The notes beneath the pieces were generated by a model. That model made no database searches. It saw only the letters and a program-made list of their open reading frames with translations, and was not told the origin of the DNA. A stretch of DNA of 64,000 nucleotides from Chiloscyllium plagiosum (Eukaryota): assembly GCF_004010195.1 (NCBI RefSeq), contig NC_057759.1, positions 1,409,212-1,473,211 on the forward strand, given 5' to 3'. Position 1 is the first letter of the stretch; each line of letters begins with the position of its first letter. The position numbers and the translations under genes are program-made. This document shows, piece by piece, positions 4,862 to 61,184 of this stretch.

Positions 4862-5177
4862 TTCCTGTCACAGATGCTGTGCTGATTTTCTGCACTAATG
4901 GGACAGAGTTACATTCTAGAGAGATACATTCTGGAGAGAGCCTGGTTCTCCAGTGATTAGTGAAGGAAGGCACTGAGCCCCAGTTCCTTTGGTAACATGA
5001 CAATGTGCTGCAAAGAAACGGCAGTGCAAACTACCATGTGACTGCTGTTGGTGCTGAGCTGGTTACTCATTCATTCCAGAGAGACAATGTCGAGAGTATC
5101 ACTGTGCAGCAAAAAACAGGGAACCAAAAACACAATTTGTAACGTGACCCGCGACAATGTCGACTTCACGCTGCAAG
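4862..5177 (+). pseudogene. Fc receptor-like Ig-domain pseudo-exon (membrane-proximal type)
   Basis: ccgcag acceptor and G|gtaag donor, phase 1. Reads VPVTDAVLIFCTNGTELHSREIHSGESLVLQ*LVKEGTEPQFLW*HDNVLQRNGSANYHVTAVGAELVTHSFQRDNV..YHCAAKN..NVTRDNVDFTLQ. Stops at 4954-56 (Cys position) and 4993-95, frameshifts, and a 15-bp internal duplication. Confidence 0.85.
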
Positions 5178-5276
5178 GTAAGAGTGACAGTTAGATCATA
5201 AATGGACAGAGGACAGAGAAACACCAACCGCTCTATGCAGTCTGTGCCAGTTAGAAACAGTTAGCCATCTCAGTTT

Positions 5277-30230: not shown

Positions 30231-31035
30231 AGTAATGAAAAATCCTTCACCCTTACCATATCTGAGTACTCGATTACCTACAGACTCTGGGACACTGCAA
30301 GACCTGGATAAGGTGTGGGTCTTGGGAAATGAGGGAAACTAATCAGGTCCTAGTTCGAGTGAGTCTGGAGAAGATTACTGGCCATTTATTTAACGCCAGT
30401 ACAGTGCAGAAGCCAAAAGGAAAAGAAAAACAGAGGGCAAGAAGGGTTGTGTTAAATATGAAAAAAAAAAAAGGCAAACCATAATCCTCCCAAACCTCAA
30501 ACTGGTGGAAAGATGATCCCTCATCCTAAAGGTACATTGCCAAAAATGCAATGAGATAATCAACAAGATAAGTCATAACAAGGAAAAAAACAGAGCTGAA
30601 AGGCCAATCAAATGTTGTTTGCGAGATATTCTCAAGTAATGAAAAATCCTTCATGCTTACCATATCTGAGTACTCGATTACCTACAAACTCTGGGACACT
30701 GCAAGACCTGGATAAGGTGTGGGTCCTGGGAAATGAGGGAAACTAATCAGGTCCTAGTTCCAGTGAGTCTGGAGAAGATTACTGGCCATTTATTTAACGC
30801 CAGTACAGTGCAGAAGCCAAAAGGAAAAGAAAAACAGAGGGCAAGAAGGGTTGTGTTAAATATGAAAAAAAAAAAAGGCAAACCATAATCCTCCCAAACC
30901 TCAAACTGGTGGAAAGATGATCCCTCATCCTAAAGGTACATTGCCAAAAATGCAATGAGATAATCAACAAGATAAGTCATAACAAGGAAAAAAACAGAGC
31001 TGAAAGGCCAATCAAATGTTGTTTGCGAGATATTC
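30231..31035 (+). repeat. Near-perfect 404-bp tandem duplication
   Basis: 30231-30634 is repeated at 30635-31035 with only a few differences. Confidence 0.95.
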
Positions 31036-43957: not shown

Positions 43958-44049
43958 CTTGTATTCATTTTTTCTGTCCTGTTATATCAGTGTCATAAAT
44001 ATTTGTTCTTTATTTTCAATCTTCAACGCTGTTTTTGTGGAAACTGTCC
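43958..44049 (-). pseudogene. Candidate cytoplasmic exon of the FcR-like pseudogene
   Basis: tttctcatattgcag|G acceptor and AAG|gtaagc donor; (G)TVSTKTALKIENKEQIFMTLI*QDRKNEYK. Confidence 0.4.
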
Positions 44050-44148
44050 CTGCAATATGAGAAATCAGAAATAATTGAGATTAAGGAATGACCAACTGTC
44101 GTTCGTTGAGTTTCATGTGTAGTTTAAAACTTTTTTTTATTACACATA

Positions 44149-44221
44149 ATGTCTTATTTCAGTCTGATTTTTTTTTCTTCAAGGTACTCGATCATTCCTC
44201 TTAGCTGTAATGGTCTTTCTG
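44149..44221 (+). pseudogene. Candidate exon 1 of the GPR139-like pseudogene
   Basis: ATG, 24 codons ending ...NGLS, and a phase-1 G|gtagct donor compatible with the phase-1 acceptor at 44941. Confidence 0.3.
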
Positions 44222-44940
44222 GTAGCTGTGAGTGTTTGTGAAATTTAACTTCATTCTTTGATCTGAATGTAGTCAACCCGTTTGTAGTTTAATGTCATGC
44301 CCTTTCAGAAAATCAGAAACTCAGATATGATTATATAACACTTGATTGAAAATGTACGTAAGCTTGCAGGCACATTTCCTATTTCTAGATGCTCCAGATA
44401 TATTCATGATCAAATGTTCAAATGGCATTCCAGCATTATGTGATATGCAGATCAGTTGATATCAAATCTTTAGCTGTGAATACCTTGCTCCTAAAAGATG
44501 CATTGTCACAAAAACAACAAATTTAACCTCATTGTGAGCTGCAACACTCAAAAGATCATTCTTACTGTTGTTTAACGTACAATGAACTTTGCAAAGTAAT
44601 TCAAAATTTCTAGATGCATACAGTATAACCAGAAAGAACAGACCGTTTGCACATAAAGGGATCTCGTTATGTTCTATGTACTGAAAGTGTTGCACGCTTT
44701 TATTTTGATCATGAAAATTGTTGATACAATTCAAAATTAAATTTAAATAATTTTATCTGTTAATTTGTTCCAGTCATCAACACAATCATGAAATGTATCT
44801 AAATTCAACTTTATATTACAAATAGATCCAGAAATATCATAGTTTAATCCATTAAGAAGCAAATTCATTTGATTCTTTGAAAGTACAAAAGAGTCTATGA
44901 TACCCTCAGAGTATTTTTTTACATTTCTGTTTTCTTACAG

Positions 44941-45836
44941 TTAATTTATCAGCAATTGTGATCTTAGCACGAGGCAAGTGTGGTCTCTCCAAATGCATTA
45001 CTACATACCTTCTGGCAATGGCACTCGTGGACCTTGCTGTGGTTGTACTCCATGTGATATTATACAGGATTAATATCATGCATATGTCCATTAGTTTCCT
45101 TTTTTAACGCTAGTGTGCACCGTAAACCTAATCACCTATATTGTATGTGTTGGTTGTTCTGTATGATTTACTGTGGAATTCACTTTTGATTGCTTTGTTG
45201 CAATTTGCTTTCAGAAGTTTCAGTCAAAATCCTGCACGAGGAGAAATGCAATTGCAGTTGTTGTCACTTTATTTGTGTTGAGCTGCCTGAGGACCATCCC
45301 CTTTTATTTTATGTTTGCACCAGCTTTAATCATTGTTAATGTGCAGTGGCATTGCGTTCAGACGCATGATTATCTCATCTCGCCTTTATGGGCAGCATTT
45401 GAATGCATTCACAGCGCCATAACACCACTATTACCAATCCTGTTTATCTTGTCTTTCAACTGTCAGACATATATTAACAGCAAATCGAGCCCACAAGATA
45501 CTTCTAAAAAGTACTGAGTGTCAGAATGATTCAGAGATCAAAAATCACAGAAAATCTATGATTTTGCTTTTCACTACTTCTGCTAATTTCATAATCCTGC
45601 GGATGGTATATGTTATGTATTCGATCAAATGGCCAGTCGTAAATGCTTTTTACAAAGACAAATATTACAGCAGTCCCATATATATTGCGCAACAGTTTGT
45701 TTTTATATTGCAGCTTCTTAGTTCCTGCACAACCATTTGTATTTATGGATTGACACAGAGGAAATTCAGAGAGGAGTTGAAGAATGGTTTCAAATTCCTG
45801 TTCACAATCAACGGGAAGTTATGTCAACAACAATAA
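44941..45836 (+). pseudogene. GPR139-like class A GPCR pseudogene (main exon)
   Basis: ttcttacag| VNLSAIVILARGKCGLSKCITTYLLAMALVDL, CSV*FTVEFTFDCFVAIC, RKSMILLF, QLLSSCTTICIYGLTQRKFREELK. Frameshift at about 45105, TGA at 45164-66, deletion at about 45460. Confidence 0.9.
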
Positions 45837-47729
45837 ATAGCTTTGATTGTGGATAAACATGTAGATTGACAATTTACATGCAATTACATTCGTGCAACTC
45901 AATTGGATCGAAACATATGAATTACGTGTAAAAGTACACGTTTTGATACATGAAGGCTGCTGTAACACTCAATGTGATCAGATCTCGTTTCTGATTGTTG
46001 TTCAGTCCTGGCTTTCATTCTCAGAATCTCGATATCACCGGCAAGGCCAGTATTTATTGCTCACCTCAGAGGATAAGCAATGAGCAGGTCCCAGGCTAAT
46101 CTGCTGGCCCAGATCGCAGCCTGAGATATGATCCCAGGCCTATGGCTAGTCCAAGGTGCAGGATGGCAATTTTTATACCAGTGCAGACCATGTGAACTCA
46201 ACATCAGCTGCATTAGCCAGGTTGGCCCTGCATGTGCTCATAACAGTGACAACGTTAGTGGAGGCGAATTGACACAACGGAGTAGCGCCTCTATGTAACA
46301 GAAGCAGCAGCGTGTTGAACTGCAGTTGCAGCTGTATTTTTGGTTTAGCTGCAGGGACTCTAGGCATCACAGTGGAGAAGCCCAGATCCAGGCCTGTTGC
46401 TAAGCTCCAAGGAGGAGCTGTTCCAAATGCCACCTAAATTGATTGTTAAAAAAAGACTATAATATGAACATTATTGTTTTATTTTTCTGGTTTCGTGTTC
46501 TTTGTTTTGGTTTATTTTCTGTGTATTAAGATGGTGTCAAGAGTGTCAACACTAAACAACATTTTTCACTGTATTTGTAAAAAAAATGCAAGTAACAATA
46601 ATTTAAAAAGTCAGCTAAGAGTCAACCATACTTTCATCGATCTAGAGTCCAGCCCAGATAAGAATAGCAGTTTCCTTCCCAAATGAGCATTAATGTTACT
46701 GTTGACTACACTTCTGCATTAAACGTAAACTTTAAGTGCCTAACATTATACTTCACTTTGCAATAGAATTATTAATCCTGAACTAGCATTACTAGATCAG
46801 AAGCTTCTTAATGATAATCAAATTCCTATCCATTTGAGATGACACTCAGAATGACCAGATAGTATTGCAGAATGGGTAAGCAATATATTGCAGATGCTGG
46901 AAACCAGCTAACAAAAACTAGAAAAATCTAATGCCGAGAAACCCATTGAGTCTAGTATCATCTGTATATGAAGAAAAATAGTCCACTTTCTAAATCATCT
47001 GTAAATCACCTTCAAAACTGAAAGGGAATGGAATTGACTTTTTTCATGTTGCTGATAGGGACAGAGATAGAAAATATAGCCCAGAGAAAACGGCAAACCT
47101 GTATGTTTGCATTAATCATATAAATGCGCAATCCACAGTCCAACATCGAAGCAAAAGCTAAATGTTAAAATATATAAAGGGGTCTGTTGTGTTGAGAGAA
47201 AAAACATCAACCCACAATGAAAACACCGAATCGAGGCGAGGGCAATAGTTAATGTAATAACCTACAGGACAATATACTTAGGTTGGAGTTTTTGAACTCA
47301 ATGTTAGATGTTCGTCATTACAAAGTAACTAAGGAGACTAATATTTTATTTTGTACCAATTTGGAGCGAGTTCACTGGAACATTGCTATAAGCATAAACT
47401 GGAAATTTGATCATAGGCGGAAAATGTTGTATTAAATGGCAAGTAACTGGGAACTCAAGAACAGTTTTGCAGACAAAAGCGAAGGTGAGCCACAAAGAGG
47501 ACTCATATTCTGCAGGTGGTTTTGCTGATATAAAAGAAAATGCAGTGCTTAGTTTTAATACTTTTATACGGAGATATATTTATAAAATTATGAAGAGAAA
47601 TAAGGACAGGTCCAGCATGCAGATATTCAACCTTTACAACCTAGTTCTATAAGTATTTCTGCATTTTAAAAAATTCTTAATTCACACCTGGGACATAGAC
47701 TTCACTGAATAGGTCAGCATTTATTTTCT

Positions 47730-48310
47730 ATTTCCAGCTGCAGTTGTGGAAGGTGGGGGAGGGATTTTCCACCGACTCACAACCTCTCCACATTGGAGAG
47801 AATTCCTTTCTTATCTCTATTTTGAAACTGCCTCACCCCGTTCAACTGAAACGATCACCTCTTGTTCTCGACTTCCCACATGAGAAAACATCCTCTCTCC
47901 ATCTCCTTTGTCAATTCCCCCTTTAGCGTCTAATATTCCTCACTTCGATCTCCTCCCGCACAACACCAGAAAACCTGCTCTATATCTGATCTAAAACAAA
48001 AACTTCAGCTCTGGAAATGAACGAATCTCCTCTGAACTCCCTCCAATTCAATTGCATCGCTCCTCAAGTCAGGGGACAAAAATTGTACGCAGTTCTCCGG
48101 ATGAGGAAATCCCTATACCATGTACAGTGACAATAACACTTCAATACTTGCATACCCCATTCCTTTCGCAATAAATACTTTCTTATTACTTGTTGTAGCT
48201 GTGTACTATTTTCTGAACTTCATGCAGAAGGACACCCGGATTCCTCTGCACCGGCACATTTTGAAAATTCTCTCCCATTCACAAGAAAACAAATGCCTTT
48301 TTCAATTCTT
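47730..48310 (-). mobile_element. CR1 fragment (decayed)
   Basis: Antisense CR1 3' region motifs. Confidence 0.6.
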
Positions 48311-48331
48311 CCATACAATGTATAGCCTCAC

Positions 48332-48415
48332 CACTGTTGGGACTGACCCACGCATAGTTCAGTCTCAAACAGAAATCTAAAGAGTGTCCTTGATATGAAC
48401 TGTTGGGCTTGAGAT
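48332..48415 (-). pseudogene. FcR-like cytoplasmic exon with ITIM-like LNYAWV
   Basis: ...SSYQGHSLDFCLRLNYAWVSPNS G|gtgagg; acceptor not intact. Confidence 0.45.
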
Positions 48416-48561
48416 TTGCAAAACACTCAGACACAAACGTCCATTTGCCCCAACTCGTCTTACAAATACAAAGTGGCTGGGTTTACACCCCAGAGGGATT
48501 CTCAGCCCAATTGGACTGTGTTTGAATGATGTTAGAAGATTCTTCGACCTCACTAACTTGC

Positions 48562-48592
48562 CTGCATCGTCGGGAACTGCTGGAAGAATGAG
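48562..48592 (-). pseudogene. Candidate short juxtamembrane exon
   Basis: aattttctccag| (A)HSSSSSRRC AG|gcaagt (GC donor). Confidence 0.35.
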
Positions 48593-49295
48593 CTGGAGAA
48601 AATTAGAGATAAAAATATGGGAATATTTTTCTACAAGTATTCCCTGTCACGTGCTTGCAAATAAATCTAGTATTTTTTTGACTGATGTGAAAGCAACAAT
48701 TATTCGAATGATCATCTTTCATTTATGTCTGTGCTGACCAATCCACTGACCACAGCAATTTACTTTGTACGTCAGCACTTTTAATTTGGTCTGCCAACCA
48801 TTCGCCCTGCCCACATCCTCACAAAATACCTTTCTACACAGTGTTTCATAATTTGTCTTTTTCATTCACAACAACAGACGTGTTTATTGACCCCCATCCC
48901 AAGTTGCCCCCGTGAGAAGATAATGGGGAGCTGCATTCTGGAACTGCTGCAGTCCATGTGATGTAGGTAGATCCAAAATACTTTTATGGCGGGAATTCCA
49001 GCATGTTGACCGCAGGAACAGACGATATATTTCCAGGTCAGGACAGTGCGTGGCTCGTAATGGTGGCGTCCCAAATATCTGCTGCCCTTACCCTTCCAGA
49101 TAAAAGTGGTCGTGGGTTTTAAAGGGGTTTCCTGAGGATCTTTGGTGAACTTATGCAGTGCATCGTGTTGACAGCCCACACTGTTGCTTCAGAGTGTTGG
49201 TGGTGGAGGGAGGAAGGAGAAGGATATGGCAACACATACACACACACACACACAGAGCATTTCAAATAAACATTACACGAGTGATATTAGTTTGA

Positions 49296-49424
49296 GGAGA
49301 AAGTGAGGTCTGCAGATGCTGGAGATCACAGATGGAAATGTGTTGCTGGAAAAGCGCAGCAGGTCAGGCAGCATCTAGGGAACAGGAGAATCGACGTTTC
49401 CGGCATTAGCCCTTCTTCAGGAAG
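49296..49424 (-). mobile_element. Solo Penelope-type terminal repeat with hammerhead ribozyme motif
   Basis: Minus strand CTGAAGA-agGGC-taat-GCCg-GAAAC-GTC (49393-49420), flanked by the 13-bp direct repeat gatattagtttga (49283-95 and 49425-37). Confidence 0.8.
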
Positions 49425-49501
49425 GATATTAGTTTGAAACTCACATTGGGTCCCGATTGGAGAATGATCACTGGCATTACCTGCCAAAGTGTCTCACACA
49501 C

Positions 49502-49602
49502 CTTTACTCCTTTTCTGGAGTTTAATGGGAAACAATGCGAGGAGAGAAATATCAGAAACAGTGGGACAATGAGTACTGCCATCTCAGCGCTGTGTGTCTG
49601 TG
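49502..49602 (-). pseudogene. FcR-like transmembrane exon
   Basis: QTHSAEMAVLIVPLFLIF, frameshift, LLALFPIKLQKRSK G|gtgtgt; acceptor reads AA instead of AG. Confidence 0.65.
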
Positions 49603-49999
49603 TTGGATTCAGAGAAGGATTTCCTATCAATAAAATCATTCTTTCAGCAAACGCCAATCCCAGTGTTCCCTTTTCCCTTTTGTCCCGATCCCTTGCCAAC
49701 ACCAGTCCATTTGTAGGGAAATGTTCGTGTCTGTAAAATTCACTCTGAACTCTTACCATCGCAGTGACATCACTATTTCGGTGCAGCCTCTCTCATTAAC
49801 AACATCCCACCAATCCAACCCAGACTAATTGGTGCTAAACTCAAAAGATTGCTCAAAACCCAATCTCTCCAAATTGTCGACGAGAAATTATTGTCCCTCA
49901 TTTTCACTGCTGGCATGTATTAAGATAAAACTTCAATTTGTCCTCAATTTGTCAGCGGCAACTGGGCCATTCCCAGAGAAACATCGAAAATAGCATCAG

Positions 50000-50600
50000 C
50001 AGGAAGCTAATAGGCGCCACCAGCCTGCTCCACCCATTGAATGAGATCACGGATAAGCATCCAGCTTGATCCTGTGTCTCCCCACGCTCTCAGTTCAACC
50101 CTTGAGAGCTCTATCCAACTGCTTCCTGAACAACATTGAGTATTCTGGCCCTGACTGCTTTCTGTGGCAGAGAATTCCACATTCTCCTCACTGTCTAGTT
50201 GAAGACATTACCCCCCATCTCACTCCTACTCTGTCTACGTTAGACTGTCACTCCCTGGTTCTGGACTTTCCATCCATTCATCAGGAACACCCTCCCTGTG
50301 TGTACTCTGCCCCGTCCATATTCGAATTCTTTAGATTTCTATGAGATTTCCCTCCTCGATCTTCTAAACTCCAGTTGATATACTCCTAATTTTAACCAAT
50401 CCAATGTCTCTCCACCTGTCCGCCCTGCCATCTCAGGAATCAATCTGAGAAATGTTTGTCTCATTTCCTCTGTAGCCAGAATATTATTTATCGCATGCAG
50501 AGACCCCAAACTGCATGCAGAGTTCTTCAGGGCGTGGTCTCACCCTTTTCAATATTAGCGACAGATCCCTGTTCCTGGACTTGAATCCTCTTACTAAAAG
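50000..50600 (-). mobile_element. CR1 3' fragment
   Basis: Antisense CR1 end (ctgtggcagagaattccaca...cttctaaactcca). Confidence 0.7.
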
Positions 50601-50847
50601 GTCTCATTTATCGAAGAAAGGATGTTACGCTCTCTCTCTCTCTCTCTCTAAAGATGCTGCCAGAACTACTGATTTTCTCCAGCACTTTGTGTTTATAACA
50701 TGTAATGTCAACTGTTTCTCATGCTGTCTCCATAGATGCTGCCCGATCTGCTGAGTCTTTCCCGCAATTTTTTACACTGGTCATATCACGTCTTCAGCTG
50801 GAGTCCAGTGAAGAATAAACACGGATCACAGATGAAGAATGGATTAC

Positions 50848-51124
50848 CTGGCACTGTGAGGTCTATGGCATTGCTGGTTAGATTAGATATTGTTCCACTG
50901 GGACCCTTTTTGATTGCAACAGTCTTGGTGTTGAGACTGGACGGATTCAATGGCCAGATCTTTCCTGTCTGAGCTGAGGTTGTAATTTCCGCTGGCACTG
51001 TTTAGGGCTTTCTGAAAGTAGGGTCCTGTATGTTGGCTCAATACATACTCTAGAAGGAGACGATTTCCAATCGGATCCTCCGTTTTATTGCCTTTGTGAG
51101 TGAGACAAATCCCAGCAACGGCAA
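50848..51124 (-). pseudogene. FcR-like Ig exon D4 (membrane-proximal), paralog of 4862-5177
   Basis: tcttttgttccag| AVAGICLTHKGNKTEDPIGNRLLLEY..GNYNLSSDRKDLAIESVQSQH../..NLTSNAIDLTVP G|gtaatc; first Cys replaced by Tyr, deletion and frameshift. Confidence 0.75.
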
Positions 51125-51289
51125 CTGGAACAAAAGAAGACAAAGAGGATATAAAAGATCAGGTGCTGAAATTGTCTTTTTTCTGGATGTTATCTCCGTC
51201 TCTTGTAAAATAAAACACAATTTGAAAGATTTATTTTAACTATGTATGGCCAAACGGTACATCAGCCAACCATTGCTCACTTGACTTTC

Positions 51290-51730
51290 AATACACCCCC
51301 CATGCGACTCTCAACATCCTGGGGGGTACCATCACTATCCCCACCCCACCACACTATTCACATCCTGGGAGTTAACGTCACTGTCCCCACACCCACCTCA
51401 GTATCAACATCATGGGGGTTAATGTCACCCTCCCCACCCCCACCCTACTATTAACATCCTGGGGTTTACTGTCACTGTCCCCACATCCATCCCACCATTA
51501 CCATCCTGGGAGTTACAGTCACTGTCCCCACCCTCATCCCACTGTTAAAATCCAGGGACATACCATCACTGACCCCACATCCACCCCACTATCAACATCG
51601 TAGGGGTTACTGTCATGTCCCCACCCAAACCCGACTACCAACTGTTGGTCACCGTGACCTACCACCCTCACCCAACAATCAAGATCCTGCGGGTTATCAT
51701 TGCTGTCCCCAGCCCCCCGCACTATTTACT
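51290..51730. repeat. ~46-47-bp minisatellite, about 9 copies
   Basis: acatcctggg-like motif at 51314, 51360, 51407, 51454...; unit approx. ccccaccccaccctactatcaacatcctggggttactgtcactgt. Confidence 0.85.
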
Positions 51731-51809
51731 TCCTCGTGTTGACCATCAGCCTTATCCAACTCTTATTGTCAAAGCTTCTAACTTTTTTTGATGAATTGAT
51801 TAACATGGA

Positions 51810-52240
51810 ATCGTGGAGTCAGAGGTCTACAGTATAGAAAAAAGTCCCTTCAGCCGATTGAATCCATACCGTTCAAAAGCAAACGTATCCCAACTCTCTA
51901 ATTTCATTTTCCCAGTGCTTGGATTCAAAGAATCATGTAGCACCGAAACAGACCCTTCAACCCAACTTGTCAATCCGGAACAGGTCTTACAAACTGAACT
52001 AGTCCACTTGCCTGCGTTTGGACCATATCCCTCTAAACCTTTCCTATCCATGCATCTGCTCAAATATCTTTTAATGTTGCATTTGTTCCCTCTTCAACCA
52101 GTTCCTCTGGTAGGTCATTCCATATACACACCACCTTTTTGTGTGAAAAAGTTGCCCATTATGTCTCCTTTAAAACTTACCCTTCTCACCTTAAACCAAT
52201 GTCATGTAATTTTAGACTACCTGCCCTGCGGAAAAGACCT
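51810..52240 (-). mobile_element. CR1 3' ends
   Basis: MDRKGLEGYGPNAGKW, the CR1 terminal peptide. Confidence 0.85.
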
Positions 52241-52491
52241 TAGCCCGATTTCTGCAGAAAATAGAAGTGAAATGTCGACGGCCATTTAATCTGACTATAG
52301 CCTTGGCATCAGAAGTGCACATCTAAATCGGTTTCTGATTCTCCTATTCTTACACGCAGTGAATTCCAGATTCCCACCGCCCTCTGGATGAAAATCTTCC
52401 AGATTTCCATTGCCCTCTGGATGATTAACCCTTACATTTCCAACGGTTTGAATAACAGAGAAAAAATGAAAGAAAAGGAAATGTAGCTTAT

Positions 52492-52769
52492 GCTTGATTG
52501 AACTGGGAACCATGTCGCTCTTTTTAATTGGTTTACTGTCGCGAGTGGCAACTTTACATTGGTAAGTCCTGGAATGGGGTGGATTATTTCCTCTGTTGTA
52601 TAAATGCTCTTCTCTGAAGGCAAATTGAGAGATTCTCTTTTTTTTGTAAAATATGCAAAACGGGGGTGATCATCGTGAAAGAGTTCAGCCAAACAGAAAG
52701 TGTTAAAGTGTTCACCAATGAATACTTCCACGTCGGGGTCATCTTGCAGCTTTGGGTCAGAGCAGAGAT
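52492..52769 (-). pseudogene. FcR-like Ig exon D3
   Basis: DLCSDPKLQDDPDVEVFIGEHFNTFC...FAYFTKKRESLN...(-1 shift) HSRTYQCKVATRDSKPIKKSDMVPSSIK; 278 bp; both splice sites mutated. Confidence 0.7.
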
Positions 52770-53191
52770 CGAGAACAGAGCAAATTGCATAGAAACCGAA
52801 ACACAACGAATGCTGGAGATCTGAGACAAAGCACAGGAAGTGACGGAGAAACTCAGTAAGTCTGGCAGCATCCTTGGACAAAGACACAGAGAGAAAAACA
52901 CTTAATGTTACAGGTTATAAACACTTAAAGTGCTGGAGAAACTCAGCAGATCTGGTATCATCTGTGGAGACAGAAACAGAATTAACGTCCGTGGTCCCAA
53001 CCTTCAGAATAGCCATGCTGCCAAATCATAAAAATAAGGGTACTGTATCTATTTTTACACATCACACTGTGATACATTTGCGAAATTTCTAGTGCACAAT
53101 CACAAAATTCCTGGGAAAACTGATGACAATGTTCTTTGAAGCAACATTGACATCTTTGCCTTTGAGCCATCTAACACAAGATGCATACATC

Positions 53192-53376
53192 GTGTGATTT
53201 GGAGACGTTGATGTTGGACGGGGGTGCACACAGTTAAAAATCATGCAACACCAGATTATAGACCAAAAGGTTTATTTGGAAGATTGGGCCGATGAAGGAG
53301 TAGCCTCCGAAAACCAGTGCTTCCAAATAAACCTGTTGGATTATAACCTGGATTTGTGTGATTTGTAACTTTGTAC
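53192..53376. mobile_element. Penelope-derived inverted-terminal fragment inserted into an Ig exon
   Basis: 53225-53282 and 53318-53376 are inverted copies; degenerate HHR ccgatga-aGGAG-tagc-CTCC-gaaa at about 53289-53313. Confidence 0.75.
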
Positions 53377-53593
53377 GTTTGTGTGAGGTCCATTTCGTGA
53401 AATACATTTTTGTTCACATTGATAATTTGCTCCATCTGAAAATCTCACCCTTGCTATCGTGTAGTCCAGTTCTTGTTCTTCTTCAATTAAGGAATTGTTT
53501 AGATACCAAAGGAAAGTGTAATCTCTTTCAGATCCCCAGGAGCATTTCAGAACAAAGGTTTCACTAAGCATCAGGGTTCTGTCACTTCCGATG
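53377..53593 (-). pseudogene. FcR-like Ig exon D2, 3' end interrupted
   Basis: ttttcttcttgcag acceptor; LSETFVLKCSWGSERDYTFLWYLNNSLIEEEQELDYTIARVRFSDGANYQCEQKC (C..W..DxxxYxC). Confidence 0.85.
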
Positions 53594-53949
53594 CTGCAAG
53601 AAGAAAACATAACTTGAAAGATTGCAGCATAAGGGTAGGGGAGTCTTAGTGCATTTGTATGATTTAATTGGAGGTAGTTGACATAACGTTCACCGGGATT
53701 ATCCTCGTGATTGAGGGGCCATCTTGTCAGCAAACACTACAGAAGTTGGGATTCTACTCACTAGAGTTTAGAAGAATGAGAGGTGATCTAATTGAAACAT
53801 GTTAGGACTTGACAGAGTCAATGCTAAGAGGTCAAATCCAACCATGGCGGGGGGTGGAGTTTGAGATCAGTGAACATACAGCCCCAAAACACCTAAAAAT
53901 GTAATGGGATGGAATGTCAAGGCAACAAGTTAATCATCCATTTTAACAA

Positions 53950-54830
53950 AATGCAAACGATAATACAGAAGGTATGAAGACTGGCCAGGTGGTTGACCGT
54001 GAGTGGGAAGGTGTTAGGTTAGAGGTGAATCGGTCAGATGGGCACATCAGTGACACATGGAGTTGAAATCTGGTTAATGGGAGCTGATCCATTTTGGAAA
54101 AAGGGTGTACTCACTGAATGGAAGGTCATTAGGAAGCTCATGAGCAAAAGAGAGATCTTGGGGTGTTTGTCCCTGGATCGCTGAAGGTTTCAGGACAGAT
54201 TGATAGGGCAGTTAAGAAGGCATTAGGGACACTTGTCTTTATCAGTGAATGTGGAGGTTATAGAAGTGGTGAGGTAATGGTGGAGCAAGACAGGACTTTT
54301 TTCAGGACACAGCTGGAGCACTGTGTGCAGTTACATTCTTCGCTCTATAGGAAGGATGTGATTATACTAAAGGGAATGCAGAGAGGATTCACCAGGCTGC
54401 TGTCTCGGTTAGCGCATTTCAGCGATGAAGAGAGGCTGCATAGGCTCAGGTTGTTTACTTAGGAGCAGAGAAGCCTGAGGAGCAATCTGATAAAAATGTG
54501 TAAGAATAAGAAGGACATGTATAGGAAGCATCTGTTTCCTTTAGTCGCAGGGTCAGTAATAAGGAGGAGAGGCATTATCTTTAAGTTAAAGGCAGGAGGT
54601 TCAGGGAGGGATTTGAGGATAGTTTCATCCAGAGCGTGAGAGGGTTTGGAATGCACTACCAGTGAGGATATTGGAGGCGGGATACTGCCTAACCATTAAA
54701 ATGTACGCAGGCACCCATTTGTAAAGTCATAACATTCAAGGCTGTGAGCTTAGTGCAGGAAAGTGTGAGTAGTATAGGCAGATCAATGCAGAGACGATGG
54801 GCTGAAGGATCCCTTCTGTACTTTACGTGG
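53950..54830 (+). mobile_element. CR1 3' fragment
   Basis: AVKKALGTLVFI...QLEHCVQL...QRGFTRLL. Confidence 0.85.
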
Positions 54831-54999
54831 CTTTAGTGAGTGACTCGATGATTCACTCACTAAAGCAAATAAAGCAAATTAACTTGGAAGTGAAAAGGGT
54901 TGATTGATTCAGTTCAATAGGAATTTCCTCTCTGTATTGTAACTGGGAACCATGAGTAAACCGTGGGAGATGGTGAAACTGGTTTGATACTGCTTCCAT

Positions 55000-55830
55000 A
55001 ATCAGCTGGGCCCTCAGCAATGTTTAGGATGCGACAGAGTGTACAATGCAGCCCTATAAATGACACAACGTGACACAGTGTAACATGGAAAGGACATGCT
55101 CCAATGCAGGATGAGGCCCAGTGAAGGGTGAGGGACAGGGTACGTTGAGGCCCAGTGTAGGGTGAGGTACAGTATAGGATGTGCTCCAGTGTATGATGAA
55201 ACATAGTTTCTTATGACACTCAGTTTGCACTGTGGAACACTGTAGGATCTCTCCTGATTTGGCATGTGGACCAGTGTAGGATGTTTCCCAGCGTAGAAAA
55301 TTGTCCAGTTTTGGATGAGGGCCAATTTAGGACATGACCCAGTTTATAATGCGGCCCAGTTGAGGATGAGGCCTAGTTTGAATATTTCAAAGTTTAGATT
55401 ATATCACAGTTTAGAATCAGTTTAGGGTGAGGCCTAATTTATAAGAAGGCCCAGTTTATGATGAGACCCAGTTCAGGATGTGGACAGTTTAGGACGAGGA
55501 ACAGTTTTAGATGTAGCAACGTTTACTATTCGTCCCAGTTTAGGGTGGATTCCACTCTAGGACGTCGTCCAGTTTAGGATAAGGGCCAGTTTGGGATGAG
55601 GTCAAGTTTAGGATGTGGCACAATTTAGGGATGTAGCCCAGTGCAGGATGTGGCCCAGTTTGGGGTGTGTTTCAGTTTGGGATGTAGCCCAGTTTCAAAA
55701 GTGGCCAATTTGGATTGTGGAAAGCTTAATGGTGAATCCTAACTTTGGATGGGACCCAATTTAGTGTGAGGCCCAGTTTAGGATCAGGCCCAGTTTGCGA
55801 TGGGGTTCAGTTTACAATGGGGCCCAGCAA
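55000..55830. repeat. Degenerate 17-bp minisatellite
   Basis: Unit approx. CCCAGTTTAGGATGAGG, e.g. cccaatttagtgtgagg cccagtttaggatcagg at 55755-55788. Confidence 0.85.
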
Positions 55831-56145
55831 TTGGTAAAACCTCTGAGGAACAGCTTGGTTCCAAAACCAGTCTCCAGATCAGTCATGTATCTGAAGGAAG
55901 GGCAGAGCAGGGTCGAATGGCCGAACGGCCAATCTGTTTTGATTTCTTCTGGTCCTGACGGTCAACATTAAATTCGGGGAGCACGAGAATTCACTCCCTT
56001 GGGAAGAGGGATGGAAAGCCTCCATGTATCGCCTTGGGACTCAATAAATGGAACAGCATGCAGAACGATACATTCTCGGTTCTCTCTACAAAAAGGAGTG
56101 TTGTTCGACACAGAGTTCATGCATCAACACTCAATGTTTACATAG

Positions 56146-56388
56146 CAATAGTCACCACTTGCAAAGGTTCACTGTGTGAAAGTATGTTCCCAATTTGACA
56201 CTGGTAAGAGCCTCCATTTTTATTGTCAGCGCTTCTTCAAAAGTAGTTAACATCAACCTTGTAATAGTTATTCTTGTATCAGCCAACCTTGAGAAATCTG
56301 CTGTTGTACCGACACTTCAGAGTGAATTGCACCTTTTTTTGGATGACACCATCCCTGGGATTAGATATGAGAATCTCTGGGGATTGGC
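56146..56388 (-). pseudogene. FcR-like Ig exon D1
   Basis: tttttctacag acceptor, 243 bp, phase 1: QSPEILISNPRDGVIQKKVQFTLKCRYNSRFLKVG*YKNNYYKVDVNYF*RSADNKNGGSYQCQIGNILSHSEPLQVVTI; stops at 56279-81 (core Trp) and 56237-39; donor reads CT. Confidence 0.85.
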
Positions 56389-56479
56389 CTGTAGAAAAAC
56401 AATATCAGTATTTCTAATAAGTAAAACTTCTGGCAAAATCTTTCACTCTTCACCGCAGTGCATGAATTTGCTGTTTCTG

Positions 56480-57030
56480 CCCAATGCAAAAACTGCTCTT
56501 GGCAAATTAATCAGTTTTTCCTCTCGCCAACGACTGTCCACCATCGACAAGGCACAAGTCAGGAGTGTGAGAGAATACTCCTCATTTGTCTGGATGGGTG
56601 CAGCTGCAATGAGATTCGAGAAGCCTTCCAGGGATTGAAACTACATTCACAAAACTCTACTCCCTTACCATCAATGATCGTTAGCAGCAGTGTCACCATC
56701 TACAAGATGCTTTGCAGAATTTCACAAAAGATCCTCAGGCAGCACCTTCCAAACCTACAACCACTTCCATCTGTTAGGGCACGGTAGGCAAATATATGGG
56801 AACACCACCCACTGCAAGTTCCCCTCCAAACCACTAACCATCCTGACTTGCAAGATATCGGCCATTCCTTCAATGTTACGAATGCTAAAGGGCATTGTGA
56901 GTATACCTATAGCATGTGGACTGCAGTGATTCATGAAGGCAGCTCAACATCACATTTGCAAGGCGGCAACGGGAACAATAAATGATAGGCCAGCCAATGA
57001 CGCCCATGTCCAACAGGCAGAAATGAACTT
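56480..57030 (+). mobile_element. CR1/L2-group LINE 3' end
   Basis: KAQVRSVREYSSFVWMGAA and IYKMLCRIS..LRQHLPN. Confidence 0.75.
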
Positions 57031-57039
57031 TAATGGGTG

Positions 57040-57800
57040 TCTATCTCCACAAGAACTGTACAGGGGTCAATCTTACAGATGCGGTCATGGGCAGATGCAT
57101 CTGCAGCTGGCAGGTTGGTAAGGATGATGTCGTATCATCAAGAGGTTTTCCCTCTTGTTGGTGCTAACTCCATATGTACAGGCCCACGCTAACAGCAATG
57201 TCGTTTAGGGCCCGACCAACTCGATTAGGAGGGCTGCCGCTGAGCCACTCTTGGTGGTGGACAATGAAATTCCCCACCCAGATTAGATCTTGTGCCTTGG
57301 CCATCCTCAGTTCTCCCCCAAAGTGTTGTTTGAAATGGAGGATTAGCGATCTATCAGCTGAGGAGGGATGGTATGTGGTAATCAGCAGGAGGTTTCCTTG
57401 CCCATGTTTAACCTGAAGCCATAAGACCGCAAAGCTGTCTGGAGATAATGTTAAAGTCTCGCAGGGTAACTCCCTCTGGAGTGTATCCCACTGTACAACC
57501 ACCTCTGCTGTTTCTGTCCTGCTGTGTAACAAGACATATCCAGCGATGGTGTTGATGGTGTCTGGGACATTGTCTGTGCGCATGATTCAGTGACTATGAT
57601 GATGACCTCCCAATTTTGGCACTAGCTCCCAGATGTTAGTGAAGAGGTATTTTCAGTGTTGACAGGGCTGTTTCCGCAATTGTCTTTTTTGGTTCCTTCG
57701 TTGATACCAGGTGATCCATCCAGTTTCGTTTCTTTGTTGAGATTTCATAGCAATAGAAACAACTGACTGACTTGCTCGGCCATTTCAATGGACAGTTAAG
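57040..57800 (-). mobile_element. LINE AP-endonuclease fragment
   Basis: QVKHGQGNLLLITTYHP...WVGNFIVHHQEWL. Confidence 0.8.
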
Positions 57801-59199
57801 TGTCAACCGTGATACAGGGTCACTGGACTCGACATGTTAACGCAGTTCCTCTCTTCCATAGATGCTGCTAGACTGGTTGAATTTCTCCAATAATTTATGT
57901 GCTTATAACCAGCAATGTTAACTCTGTCCATCACTCTCGCTCTCGCTCTCTCCCTCTCCCTACCCCCCTACCCCCCACCACCATCTTCCTCCGCAGACCG
58001 ACTAAGATGTTGAATTTTTGCATTCTTGTTTTCCTGTCCTGATTGGTATGAGACGAGAAACCTCTAACACAGTCAGTTTATTTTTCGGATGCAGCACTGC
58101 CAAATGAATATCGGCAAAGGTTCCCCACTTCTCAAAGTGGCCGGGATCGCATCAGGGCAGGGCGGGGGTGTCAACAACAATGACATCCACGTTCACGATA
58201 ATGGCTGGTACACATTACAGTTTTCTATGGATTTTGAACGTTTAAAAAGTAACATGTCATTGAAAAATTGGTGTCACTTACAGGTCACAGTAATTTCACC
58301 ACAGTTTTACCAGACCTTTAGGCTGCTCTCGCTTTACAGAGAAATGATTAGGGGGTCGTTTAACCTGAGGGTCACCACTCCTCAGGCGATGGGAGAAGTT
58401 GAGAAGGAGAGTCCTTCAAGGTGACCTCAGCTGGTGTGGGAACTGAAACTAGTGTCTTACAAAGCAGATATCCAAGCTACACCACCCCATCACAACCCTC
58501 CATCTGAGGCAAGAATGAGAGCCTACTTGGAGCAGGGGTAATTATGATTCAAATTGCCTTAACGTACACCCCAACCCAACATCATTGAAGTCAAAGACAC
58601 TGATTGTTTCCAAAGATTTATCTTAGGAAGAGTGATTGTGCAGTTTAGACCAATACTCTCTGAAGTTTAGAAGGATGAGAAATCATCTAACTCAGGGATA
58701 TAGGACGCTAAAGGGGGAATTGACAACGGAAACAGAGAAAGGTTGTTGACTCATGTGGGACAATCTAAAACCAGAGGTGATCGTTTCAGGATCGGGCGTA
58801 GGACAGAGTGAGAACAGAGATGGGGAGGAATGGATTCTCTCAAAGGCGGAGTGTGAATCTGTGGTAATATCACCACCCCCTTCCAAGAGTGTATGGGGGA
58901 TATTGGGATACTGACTAAATTGTAGGAGGAGAATGATTTTTAATCAGTGACAGGTTAAAGGAAGCGAGGGGAGGAAAGTGGAGTTGAGGTCGAGATGGGA
59001 TCATCTGCGATTGTATGGAATGAGAGAACAGTCTCCCAAGGGGCTTAATGCCTCCTGTTTCTAGCCTTTATGTATTTATGACGTACCTCGGAAAACAGCA
59101 GAGAATCTCCACACGGTGTGAGTACTGAGGGACAATGAAAGTAGCAAACACAATCAATCCTCAACACTGAGGATCCATTGGAACACACAATCCCAGCAG

Positions 59200-59465
59200 T
59201 GTAGAAGCAAGCCATTTGGGCCATCCCACACCAACCCGCTGAATTGCATCCTACACAGAACAAATTTCCTTCGCTATCCCTGTAACCCTGCATTTCCAAT
59301 GGCTAATCCACCTGACCTGCACATCTTTGGATTATGTGAGGAAACCCACTCAGGCACGGGGAAAATGTGCAAATTCCACACATCCCACACCCAAGGCTGG
59401 GATTGAACTTGGGTCCTTGGAGATGTGAAACAGCAGTGATAACGACTGAGCCAATGTGCCACCCT
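59200..59465 (-). mobile_element. HE1-type SINE
   Basis: Antisense HE1 body and head. Confidence 0.8.
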
Positions 59466-60501
59466 CAAATCTGACCTGTCTTTCAATGGCTGACCTGCGG
59501 CCTAACTCCATAGACTCGCCTTTAGCCCCATCCCGTTAATACCTTAGCAAACGCAATCTCTCTCAGTTTGAAAATTAAACATCTGATCCAGCCTCCACTA
59601 AGGTTTGTTGGCCAGAGTTCTAAACCTCTCCCTCTCTTTGTGTGTAAGTCATTCAACGTACCGTGTCCCTCCAAATGTGAAACCTTTCTTACTGTTAAAA
59701 GAAATGAGAGAGACGTCGCCGTCACGTCTACAAAAGTCCTCATTTTCAGTTGTAAACTCTGTGTGGTGATACCACACCGGTGCGATCTGAGACCAGAATG
59801 TCAGAATGGAGCCGGGGAGTACTTTACAATGGAGAATAGAAGAGGAAGTGGGAGAGTATAACCGAGATGTGATAGGGAAGGGTCCTGCTGACACTGCTTC
59901 TTTGACTGGAGATGTCTGTTCAATCTGCTCAGATGGATAGCTGAGGGCATCACACAATAGACACTTAGGGTCATCCAGCACAGAAACAGACCCTTCAGCC
60001 CAACTTGTCCATGCCAACCAGATTTCCCAAATTAAAGTAGCACGACTTGCCTGTAGTTTGGCCCTATCCCTCTAAATCTTTCCAATCCAAGTCCCTGTCC
60101 AAATATCTTTTAAATTTTAATTGTACCCGTCTCTACCACTTCCGCTGGCAGTTTGTTCCTTATACGTACCAACCTCTGTTTTAAAAAGTAACATCTCAGG
60201 GACCTTTTAACCCTTGGTCTTTTTACCGTAAACTGATGCCCTCTAGTTATTGACAAAGGTAATATAGAAATATGGGTGGCAGTACGTGATAAGGAATGTA
60301 CATTTTAATATGATAGACTCTGACAGGACAGAGGGGCCCTTTGAACCATCCAGACTGTACCTACCAACACTAAAGGATGTTGCCAATCACTGGGTAGTGG
60401 TAACCAGAACCAGGAGGGTCACAGTCTAAAGGAGACAGGGTAGCACTGAGATGTGGAGAAATGTCTTCACCAAGGAAGTTGAGAGCCTGTAGAATTCTCT
60501 G

Positions 60502-60728
60502 CCACGGTGACACAGTGGTTAGCGCTGCTGCCTCACAGCGCCAGAGACCCGGGTTCAATTCCCGCCTCAGGCGACTGACTGTGTGGAGTTTGCACGTTCT
60601 CCCCGTGTCTGCGTGGGTTTCCTCCGGGTGCTCCGGTTTCCTCCCACAGTCCAAAAATGTACAGGTCATCAGGTGAATTGACCATGCTAAATTGCCCGTA
60701 GTGTTAGGTCAGGGGTAAATGTAGGGGC
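60502..60728 (+). mobile_element. HE1-type SINE, well conserved, tail missing
   Basis: A box (ggtgacacagtgg), B box (gggttcaattccc), canonical body. Confidence 0.9.
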
Positions 60729-61011
60729 AATCTTTCTCTCCCTCAATTCTACACTCATCTCTCTCCTCCTCAATCCTGCCCCATCTCTCCCCCTCTCTAA
60801 ATCCTGCCCCTCTCTCTCTTTCCCTGTCCCTCAATCCAGACACTCTCTCTCTCTTTATATCTGTCTCACTCCACAATCCCCCTCAAAAACATTTTAACTG
60901 CAAGCTCCAACACACACACCAATTTGAATAATTTAACTCCTCCTGAAAGCATGACGCTCACAACTCATTAATCCTAGAGATAAACACACAATGTTTCATT
61001 TAGCTATAAAC

Positions 61012-61184
61012 CTGTAGCAACCACTTAGAGAAAACAAGCAGGCAAAATACCTTCCCATGCACGATCTAATGGAATCCAAACATAAAGTCAACCTGTCTCC
61101 CTCTCTCACTCTCTCTCTCTCTCCATCTATCTATCTATCTACCTAGGAAAGTAAGTACTTCAGGCAGGTGAATAATTTCTCCTT
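61012..61184 (-). pseudogene. Candidate split leader (61143-61184 and 12-bp mini-exon 61012-61023) of the FcR-like pseudogene
   Basis: ..EKLFTCL/VLTFL G|gtagat and ttttctctaag|TGGTTGCTACAG|gtttat splice to VLTFLVVATG-QSPE; ATG absent (AAG). Confidence 0.3.

Follow-up and report, generated by a model that had tools for sequence, protein, structure and literature searches.

Does the series of immunoglobulin (Ig) exons on the minus strand of contig NC_057759.1 (C50) of the shark Chiloscyllium plagiosum still encode a receptor, and to which receptor family does it belong? The DNA analysed here (the window) is a stretch of 64,000 nt, C50:1,409,212-1,473,211 of a 3.56-Gb assembly, and positions without a contig name are counted from its first letter. 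An earlier note, made from the letters of this stretch, had placed between 43958 and 61184 a dead Fc-receptor-like gene with four Ig exons and an inhibitory tail. We conclude with high confidence that the locus is an unprocessed pseudogene, derived from a shark surface-receptor gene with five Ig domains and likely a member of the FCRL family. No receptor can be made from it, since the start codon, one Ig exon, the tail exons C2-C6 and six splice sites have been lost. RefSeq already has a name for the shark family to which this new pseudogene belongs.

An intact paralog with the same exon order was looked for and found. This paralog A (RefSeq XP_043539736-43, named ‘platelet endothelial cell adhesion molecule-like’; the protein XP_043539736 is called P0008 below) lies 1.03 Mb away at C50:2,502,959-2,531,147. 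It has 14 coding exons: two leader exons of 40 and 30 nt (L1 and L2), five phase-1 Ig exons, a transmembrane (TM) exon and six tail exons (C1-C6). The map was made by aligning each of these exons to the window. Exons Ig1, Ig2, Ig3, Ig5 and TM of the window copy, which are the five large exons listed in the earlier note and translate as described there, are colinear with those of paralog A from splice site to splice site, with 74–84% local nucleotide identity, and L1, L2 and C1 could be added to the list. Over the projected exons, the two copies share ∼63% amino-acid identity. By this exon-by-exon alignment L1, L2, Ig1, Ig2, Ig3, Ig5, TM and C1 are retained and Ig4 and C2-C6 are gone, the absent exons scoring 30–37 versus 155–536 where they are present. 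Thus, the reading of a dead Fc-receptor-like gene with one phase-1 exon per Ig domain stood, while the four-domain series has to be replaced by one of five domains with the fourth deleted.

As had been claimed, every large exon is damaged by stops, frameshifts or dead splice sites. All retained exons lie on the minus strand. Leader exon L1 (40 nt, 61029-61068) begins with GTG and ends at a CT donor, and the 30-nt leader mini-exon L2 (59662-59691) is open with two good splice sites. Ig1 (56146-56388) carries in-frame TGA codons at 56279-81 and 56237-39 and a CT donor. Deletions of 22, 9 and 1 nt are found in Ig2 (53377-53593), where a dispersed repeat stands in place of the 3′ end and donor. 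Ig3 (52492-52769), which resembles the FCRL D3 type, has a CG acceptor, an AT donor and frameshifting indels. Ig4 was lost in a ∼1.3-kb deletion, the junction of which (52397-52421) is filled with an imperfect 25-nt copy of the adjoining flank. The next exon (50848-51124), previously taken for the fourth domain, is the membrane-proximal Ig5; it has lost the core Trp strand (a 15-nt deletion), its first Cys is changed to Tyr and 11 nt are gone at the second Cys. The TM exon (49502-49602), of the uncharged type, has an AA acceptor and a 1-nt deletion. C1 (48562-48592) measures 31 nt, contains no tyrosine and ends at a GC donor. Surviving splice sites include both of those of L2, the acceptors of Ig1 and Ig2 and both of those of Ig5. 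The Pfam Ig_2 profile, proposed earlier as a check, recognised Ig2 above the cut-off (E = 4.6e-7) and Ig1 weakly (E = 0.012), and no Ig match was obtained for single-frame pieces of Ig3 and Ig5.

Downstream of the TM exon, the earlier note had proposed an exon (48332-48415) encoding the hexamer LNYAWV, which resembles an immunoreceptor tyrosine-based inhibitory motif (ITIM), and further small exons. Neither belongs to the gene. The LNYAWV segment aligns to intron C1-C2 of paralog A, ∼150 nt into it, and this intron is kept at 74–77%, like the other flanks. Its remnant (47766-48561, minus strand) holds the hexamer by chance, and family homology ends at ∼47766. Among six other copies, the position reads LNGAWV, LNCVWV or LNCAWI in three, is deleted with the segment in one and gave no credible alignment in two, the tyrosine codon being private to the window copy among those that align. 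Joined after the real C1 with the boundaries first proposed, the hexamer is out of frame. Matches to the ITIM consensus number 134 in the six frames of the window and four on the minus strand of 43958-49501, which is the chance rate. LNYAWV as an ITIM exon was ruled out on these grounds. The small exons at 43958-47700 were rejected as tail as well; they lie in an unrelated segment without homology to any of 15 family tails, and tblastn with these tails returned the TM region and noise only, with no tail exon below 47766. When C2-C6 were aligned locally, as DNA, to the entire window, scores were 30–37, versus 155–202 where those exons exist. The tail of paralog A carries five tyrosine motifs (FDYAEI, AVYSSV, LLYSVV, IIYATL and NVYANV) in C2, C3, C4 and C6, two of which (LLYSVV and IIYATL) are consensus ITIMs; those exons are missing here and no ITIM is left in a spliced cytoplasmic exon of this copy.

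The lesions have an independent witness within the same contig. A second copy of the part of the window from 29.6 to 63.5 kb lies, inverted, at C50:2.963-3.001 Mb (block B, ∼35 kb), mostly with 85–90% identity. The sister copy B that it carries is 1.5 Mb away and ∼10% diverged, and shares at least eight lesions with the window copy: loss of the L1 donor (B keeps an ATG start), the second Ig1 stop, the 22-nt deletion and the repeat insertion in Ig2, a 1-nt deletion in Ig3, the 15-nt deletion with Cys loss in Ig5, the 1-nt deletion in TM, and loss of the tail, again C2-C6, at the same breakpoint. Distances are 0.09–0.11 between the window copy and B and 0.27–0.28 between the window copy and A. 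In a protein tree the window copy and B are sisters (support 100/100) and form a lineage of their own within a carpet-shark radiation that the tree does not resolve; none of the 9 proteins included is an intact member of this lineage. The ratio of nonsynonymous to synonymous substitution rates (dN/dS) of the window copy is 0.89–0.99 against copies A, D and E.

As assembly indels had been named as a possible source of the damage, the window was compared with contigs of other runs, which come from one study and at most two samples; these contigs cover Ig2, Ig3 and the Ig4 junction and leave L1, L2 and Ig1 uncovered. The whole of Ig2 lies within a contig of run X2 that spans 53322-53678, ungapped and with 1 difference. 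Overlapping contigs of X2, X3 and X4 match 52455-52651, 52638-52740 and 52712-52800 in Ig3 with 0 differences, and one X4 contig bridges the Ig4 deletion junction (52364-52476) with 3 differences and no gap. An assembly error was therefore ruled out for the covered lesions. Since lesions are common to B and reproduced in contigs of other runs, the gene died before the block duplication.

That the gene is alive and its lesions are errors of assembly is, in view of these results, extremely improbable. Such an explanation could draw on the repeat-rich nature of the region, which no single contig of another run spans, and on the lack of read coverage at L1, L2 and Ig1; against it, at least eight lesions recur in a diverged copy far off on the contig, the covered ones recur in other runs, and splice-killing substitutions and multi-base deletions are atypical of consensus errors. 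Hardly more probable, although less remote, is that the copy is transcribed into a short secreted decoy or a regulatory RNA. L2, the Ig1 and Ig2 acceptors and both Ig5 splice sites are intact, and the window copy and B differ with a dN/dS of 0.68 (356 codons), less than the 1.0 expected of two copies dead from the start (a small sample, of which the significance was untested). However, the start codon and first donor are gone, Ig1 contains two stops, and any Ig product would be without conserved Trp or Cys residues. One RNA run, of which ∼2% was read (too shallow to count), placed reads on repeats only. Two results do weigh against our main reading of the locus: the dN/dS of 0.68, and some X3 and X5 contigs that end at the Ig4 junction and run into other sequence. 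The latter may be repeat copies, paralog copies or an undeleted allele.

The segment that occupies the expected position of the tail exons carries a GPR139-like G-protein-coupled receptor (GPCR) pseudogene, unrelated to the receptor (44940-45836, plus strand; 1-nt and 8-nt deletions), with GPR139 as its best match in the PDB (E = 7.7e-7). In block B, the corresponding gene is a 309-codon open frame (C50:∼2,983.5-2,984.4 kb); in the window it is frameshifted. At least 150 scored relatives of this gene occur in the genome, the closest among the matches listed being on contig C37 at 60–65%. Beyond ∼47766, the flank 45840-47770 matches over its full length only in block B, and a genome search found no donor site for the segment.

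A history in four steps would account for these observations. A carpet-shark receptor gene would have been duplicated, and in one lineage a rearrangement in intron C1-C2 would then have removed the tail and brought in the segment bearing the GPR139-like gene, and the receptor gene of this lineage would have decayed. The dead gene would have been copied again as a passenger of the block duplication, and the window copy would later have lost Ig4, probably by end-joining repair since the junction holds an imperfect 25-nt copy of its flank. The pseudogene is thus a clear record of turnover in the cluster, with tail loss, decay and re-duplication of a dead gene beside a live GPCR gene.

To which family the gene belonged was judged on the intact paralog and its relatives. 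The shark cluster probably belongs to the FCRL family. With P0008 as the single query, PDB matches were colinear from the N-terminus and led by FCRL5 (E = 1.9e-49), FCRL4 (2.9e-19) and FcγRI (6.8e-19), and CD22 and PECAM1 were not among the best 60 of 80. Database matches to P0008 included tetrapod FCRL models (frog, turtle and squirrel, 1e-69 to 1e-26), CD22 (2e-20) and PECAM1 (2e-14). Each of the five P0008 domains had an FCRL domain as its best reference match, at the same position for domains 1, 3, 4 and 5. Named relatives examined (20, chosen from 150 matches listed) comprised 13 from sharks or rays (Heptranchias, Heterodontus, Scyliorhinus, Mustelus, Cetorhinus, Carcharodon, Hemitrygon, Narcine), six from amphibians and none from a chimaera. 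The Pfam Ig_CD22 profile, for the V-set sialic-acid domain, matched turtle CD22 and neither P0008 nor P0050. The split leader and phase-1 Ig exons fit the description of FcR/FCRL genes in PMC2413239. The 30/21-nt leader exon rule does not hold here (40/30 nt); according to passages of the same paper, this rule applies to mammalian FCRL1-6 and to only a fraction of Xenopus genes, and is not universal in the family.

Several observations weigh against this placement. In a tree of single domains (73 rows, 90 columns, with medaka PECAM1 as the only PECAM1), the D3 clade, which groups the shark domain with tetrapod FCRLs (95/91), also contains a medaka PECAM1 domain. The shark membrane-proximal domain is sister to a sauropsid/caecilian FCRL domain (98/77), with medaka PECAM1 domains adjoining. 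Shark domains 1 and 2 both fall near FCRL D1, weakly (51/62), domain 4 was unplaced, and no D2-type domain is found in the five-domain subfamily. The fold search did not separate Ig families: the AlphaFold model of P0008 had a predicted local distance difference test score (pLDDT) of 72.5 and a predicted template modelling score (pTM) of 0.44, and Foldseek ranked PirB/LILR above FcγRI, with root-mean-square deviations of 17–18 Å to FcγRI. Moreover, FCRL synteny, tested as linkage with human 1q21-23 markers, was not shown, as none of 36 Ets matches was on C50, NDUFS2 (a marker taken from passages of PMC4536121) was on an unplaced contig, one zeta/gamma-type TM was on C12 and PRCC was not found in the marker search. 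Twenty 10-kb samples of C50 7.08-8.04 Mb contained family exons in one and exons of a large RCC1-repeat gene in four, by which the contig was not placed. The latter exons (Pfam RCC1), presumably of HERC1, were observed at C50 7.88-8.04 Mb, the contig end, and reflect a true linkage or a scaffolding join. Two further searches do not enter the argument: a PDB search with Ig1 alone was uninformative, and a profile search giving FCRL5 at 6e-154 was not counted because it was circular, 5 of its 20 rows being tetrapod FCRL-type proteins.

These points give some substance to the idea that the locus is a pseudogene of a PECAM1/Allergin-1-derived family, or of a separate shark C2-set Ig family only resembling FCRL. 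The RefSeq label of the intact paralog is itself ‘PECAM-like’, domains of medaka PECAM1 are mixed in with the D3 and membrane-proximal clades, and the best genome match of medaka PECAM1 is a domain in this cluster (E = 1.5e-5, in a strict and incomplete search). The tail is spread over six small exons, compared to one to five in the Xenopus FCRLs of PMC2413239, as far as passages of that paper tell. We nevertheless consider this idea unlikely. In pairwise comparison with P0008, squirrel FCRL3 scores 117 bits and is colinear from residue 2, while PECAM1 (medaka, the only one used) reaches 69 bits from residue 168, so that no full-length colinear match including the N-terminal adhesion domains was obtained. 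The uniform choice of FCRL reference domains noted above also speaks against it, as does a second shark subfamily that matches FCRL5 in the PDB at 9.4e-77.

Known systems resemble the locus to differing degrees. Closest are paralog A and the FCRL3/4/5/6-like genes of carpet sharks (Hemiscyllium, Stegostoma, C. punctatum), which have the same exon series, phases and intron flanks as the window copy; paralog A differs from it in being intact, its five Ig domains followed by a tail with five tyrosine motifs. Tetrapod FCRL1-6 and Xenopus XFL genes (PDB 9loc for FCRL5 and 9mbz for FCRL4; PMC2413239) share the split leader, one phase-1 exon per C2-type domain, a D3-like domain, an uncharged TM with an ITIM tail, a large lineage-specific tandem cluster and mixed domain architectures. 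Unlike them, the shark genes have leaders of 40/30 nt instead of 30/21, two D1-like N-terminal domains without a D2 type in the five-domain subfamily, and no activating TM as judged by eye among 22 shark TM proteins, which would be candidate Ig binders only. As for the classical receptors FcγRI, FcγRII and FcεRI, residues 60–283 of P0008 are colinear with D1-D3 of FcγRI, while the shark receptor has extra membrane-proximal domains, an ITIM tail and no sign of D2, the domain carrying the Fc contact in classical Fc receptors. PECAM1 (CD31) shares D3-like and membrane-proximal domain types and a multi-exon ITIM tail, yet the match is much weaker and non-colinear, and the shark N-terminal domains do not group with it.

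The window copy is one of many. Searching the genome with Ig1 gave 11 matches and with Ig2 seven, of which all but one were on C50. With Ig5, 69 matches were obtained (counts from this search are lower bounds). On C50 there were 44 rows, which hand merging reduced to 38 places (0.23–7.06 Mb); of the 25 rows elsewhere, 24 were on small contigs. Among seven copies of the five-domain subfamily examined exon by exon, one was intact and six were broken. Birth-and-death turnover, as the earlier note had suggested, is evident.

An intact gene of the second subfamily, P0049 (RefSeq ‘Fc receptor-like protein 6’), lies at C50:1,478,268-1,503,933 on the minus strand, ending 5 kb past the window and ∼8 kb upstream of L1. 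Its locus contains an open sixth Ig exon at ∼1,486,830-1,487,130 that is skipped by the RefSeq isoform. A P0049-type gene recurs 20–30 kb upstream of several five-domain copies, which suggests that the two form a two-gene duplication module.

Among 23 shark family proteins, all but one possess a TM. By eye, none of these 22 TMs contains a charged residue, and 21 of the 22 proteins carry a consensus ITIM. The ITIM tail attributed to the gene therefore holds for the living family and fails for this copy. Given these motifs, the uncharged TM and the established biology of ITIMs, the living relatives are likely to be inhibitory leukocyte receptors, with tails that, once a ligand is bound, would recruit phosphatases with SH2 domains (SHP-1/2, SHIP). 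A genome search, the count of which is a lower bound, yielded one zeta/gamma-type adaptor TM, at C12:49,769,721-807; it looks closer, as we take it, to CD247 than to FcRγ. A single adaptor TM of this type would fit an all-inhibitory family.

The published record on sharks is at odds with the gene models. In the passages concerned, Fc-receptor-like genes are said to be missing in cartilaginous fish, both by a study of 2014 (PMC4016189) and by two reviews, from 2017 (PMC5742104) and 2026 (PMC13337447). RefSeq gene models across sharks and rays bear Fc-receptor-like names, and a family called poorly characterised in the earlier note is indeed little studied in print while already named. No paper describing this cluster was found in the literature searched, most subscription journals being outside its reach. 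A 2024 single-cell study (PMC11372145) lists fcrl3, fcrl5 and fcgr1a-like transcripts in bamboo-shark B cells, the family not being analysed in the passages covered, which also report ‘pecam1’ as high in these cells. This ‘pecam1’ could be one of the cluster genes, because RefSeq calls several of them ‘PECAM-like’. Passages of PMC6795676 cite a paper of 1988 with the title ‘Fc receptor for shark IgM’; in the searchable literature this receptor was not tied to a gene.

The intact neighbours are likely to be true Fc-receptor-like genes, which recent reviews deny to sharks. We lean, somewhat less firmly than for family membership as such, towards the cluster being a true elasmobranch branch of FCRL, with an apparently all-inhibitory set and turnover by block duplication; FCRL genes would then have been present in the ancestor of all jawed vertebrates. 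If so, the IgM Fc receptor of the 1988 title would have, in P0008 and P0049, its first candidates that can be cloned. The pseudogene copy itself is ordinary and matters little: the interest is in its intact relatives, which make the origin of antibody receptors testable and to which the credit belongs.

A few other features were observed. Intron minisatellites of 47 bp and 17 bp (window 51307-51637 and 55108-55826) are a hallmark of the family, being present in all or most paralogs; at many places without front exons, the 47-bp array was found together with the fifth Ig exon. The window also holds, at 4862-5178 (plus strand), a membrane-proximal Ig exon from the second FCRL-like subfamily, broken by two stops and one frameshift; it stands alone, as no other exon of this subfamily was found in the window. 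Finally, 30231-31035 contains a 404-bp tandem duplication of 98% identity, which is either recent or an assembly artefact, as it is single-copy in block B.

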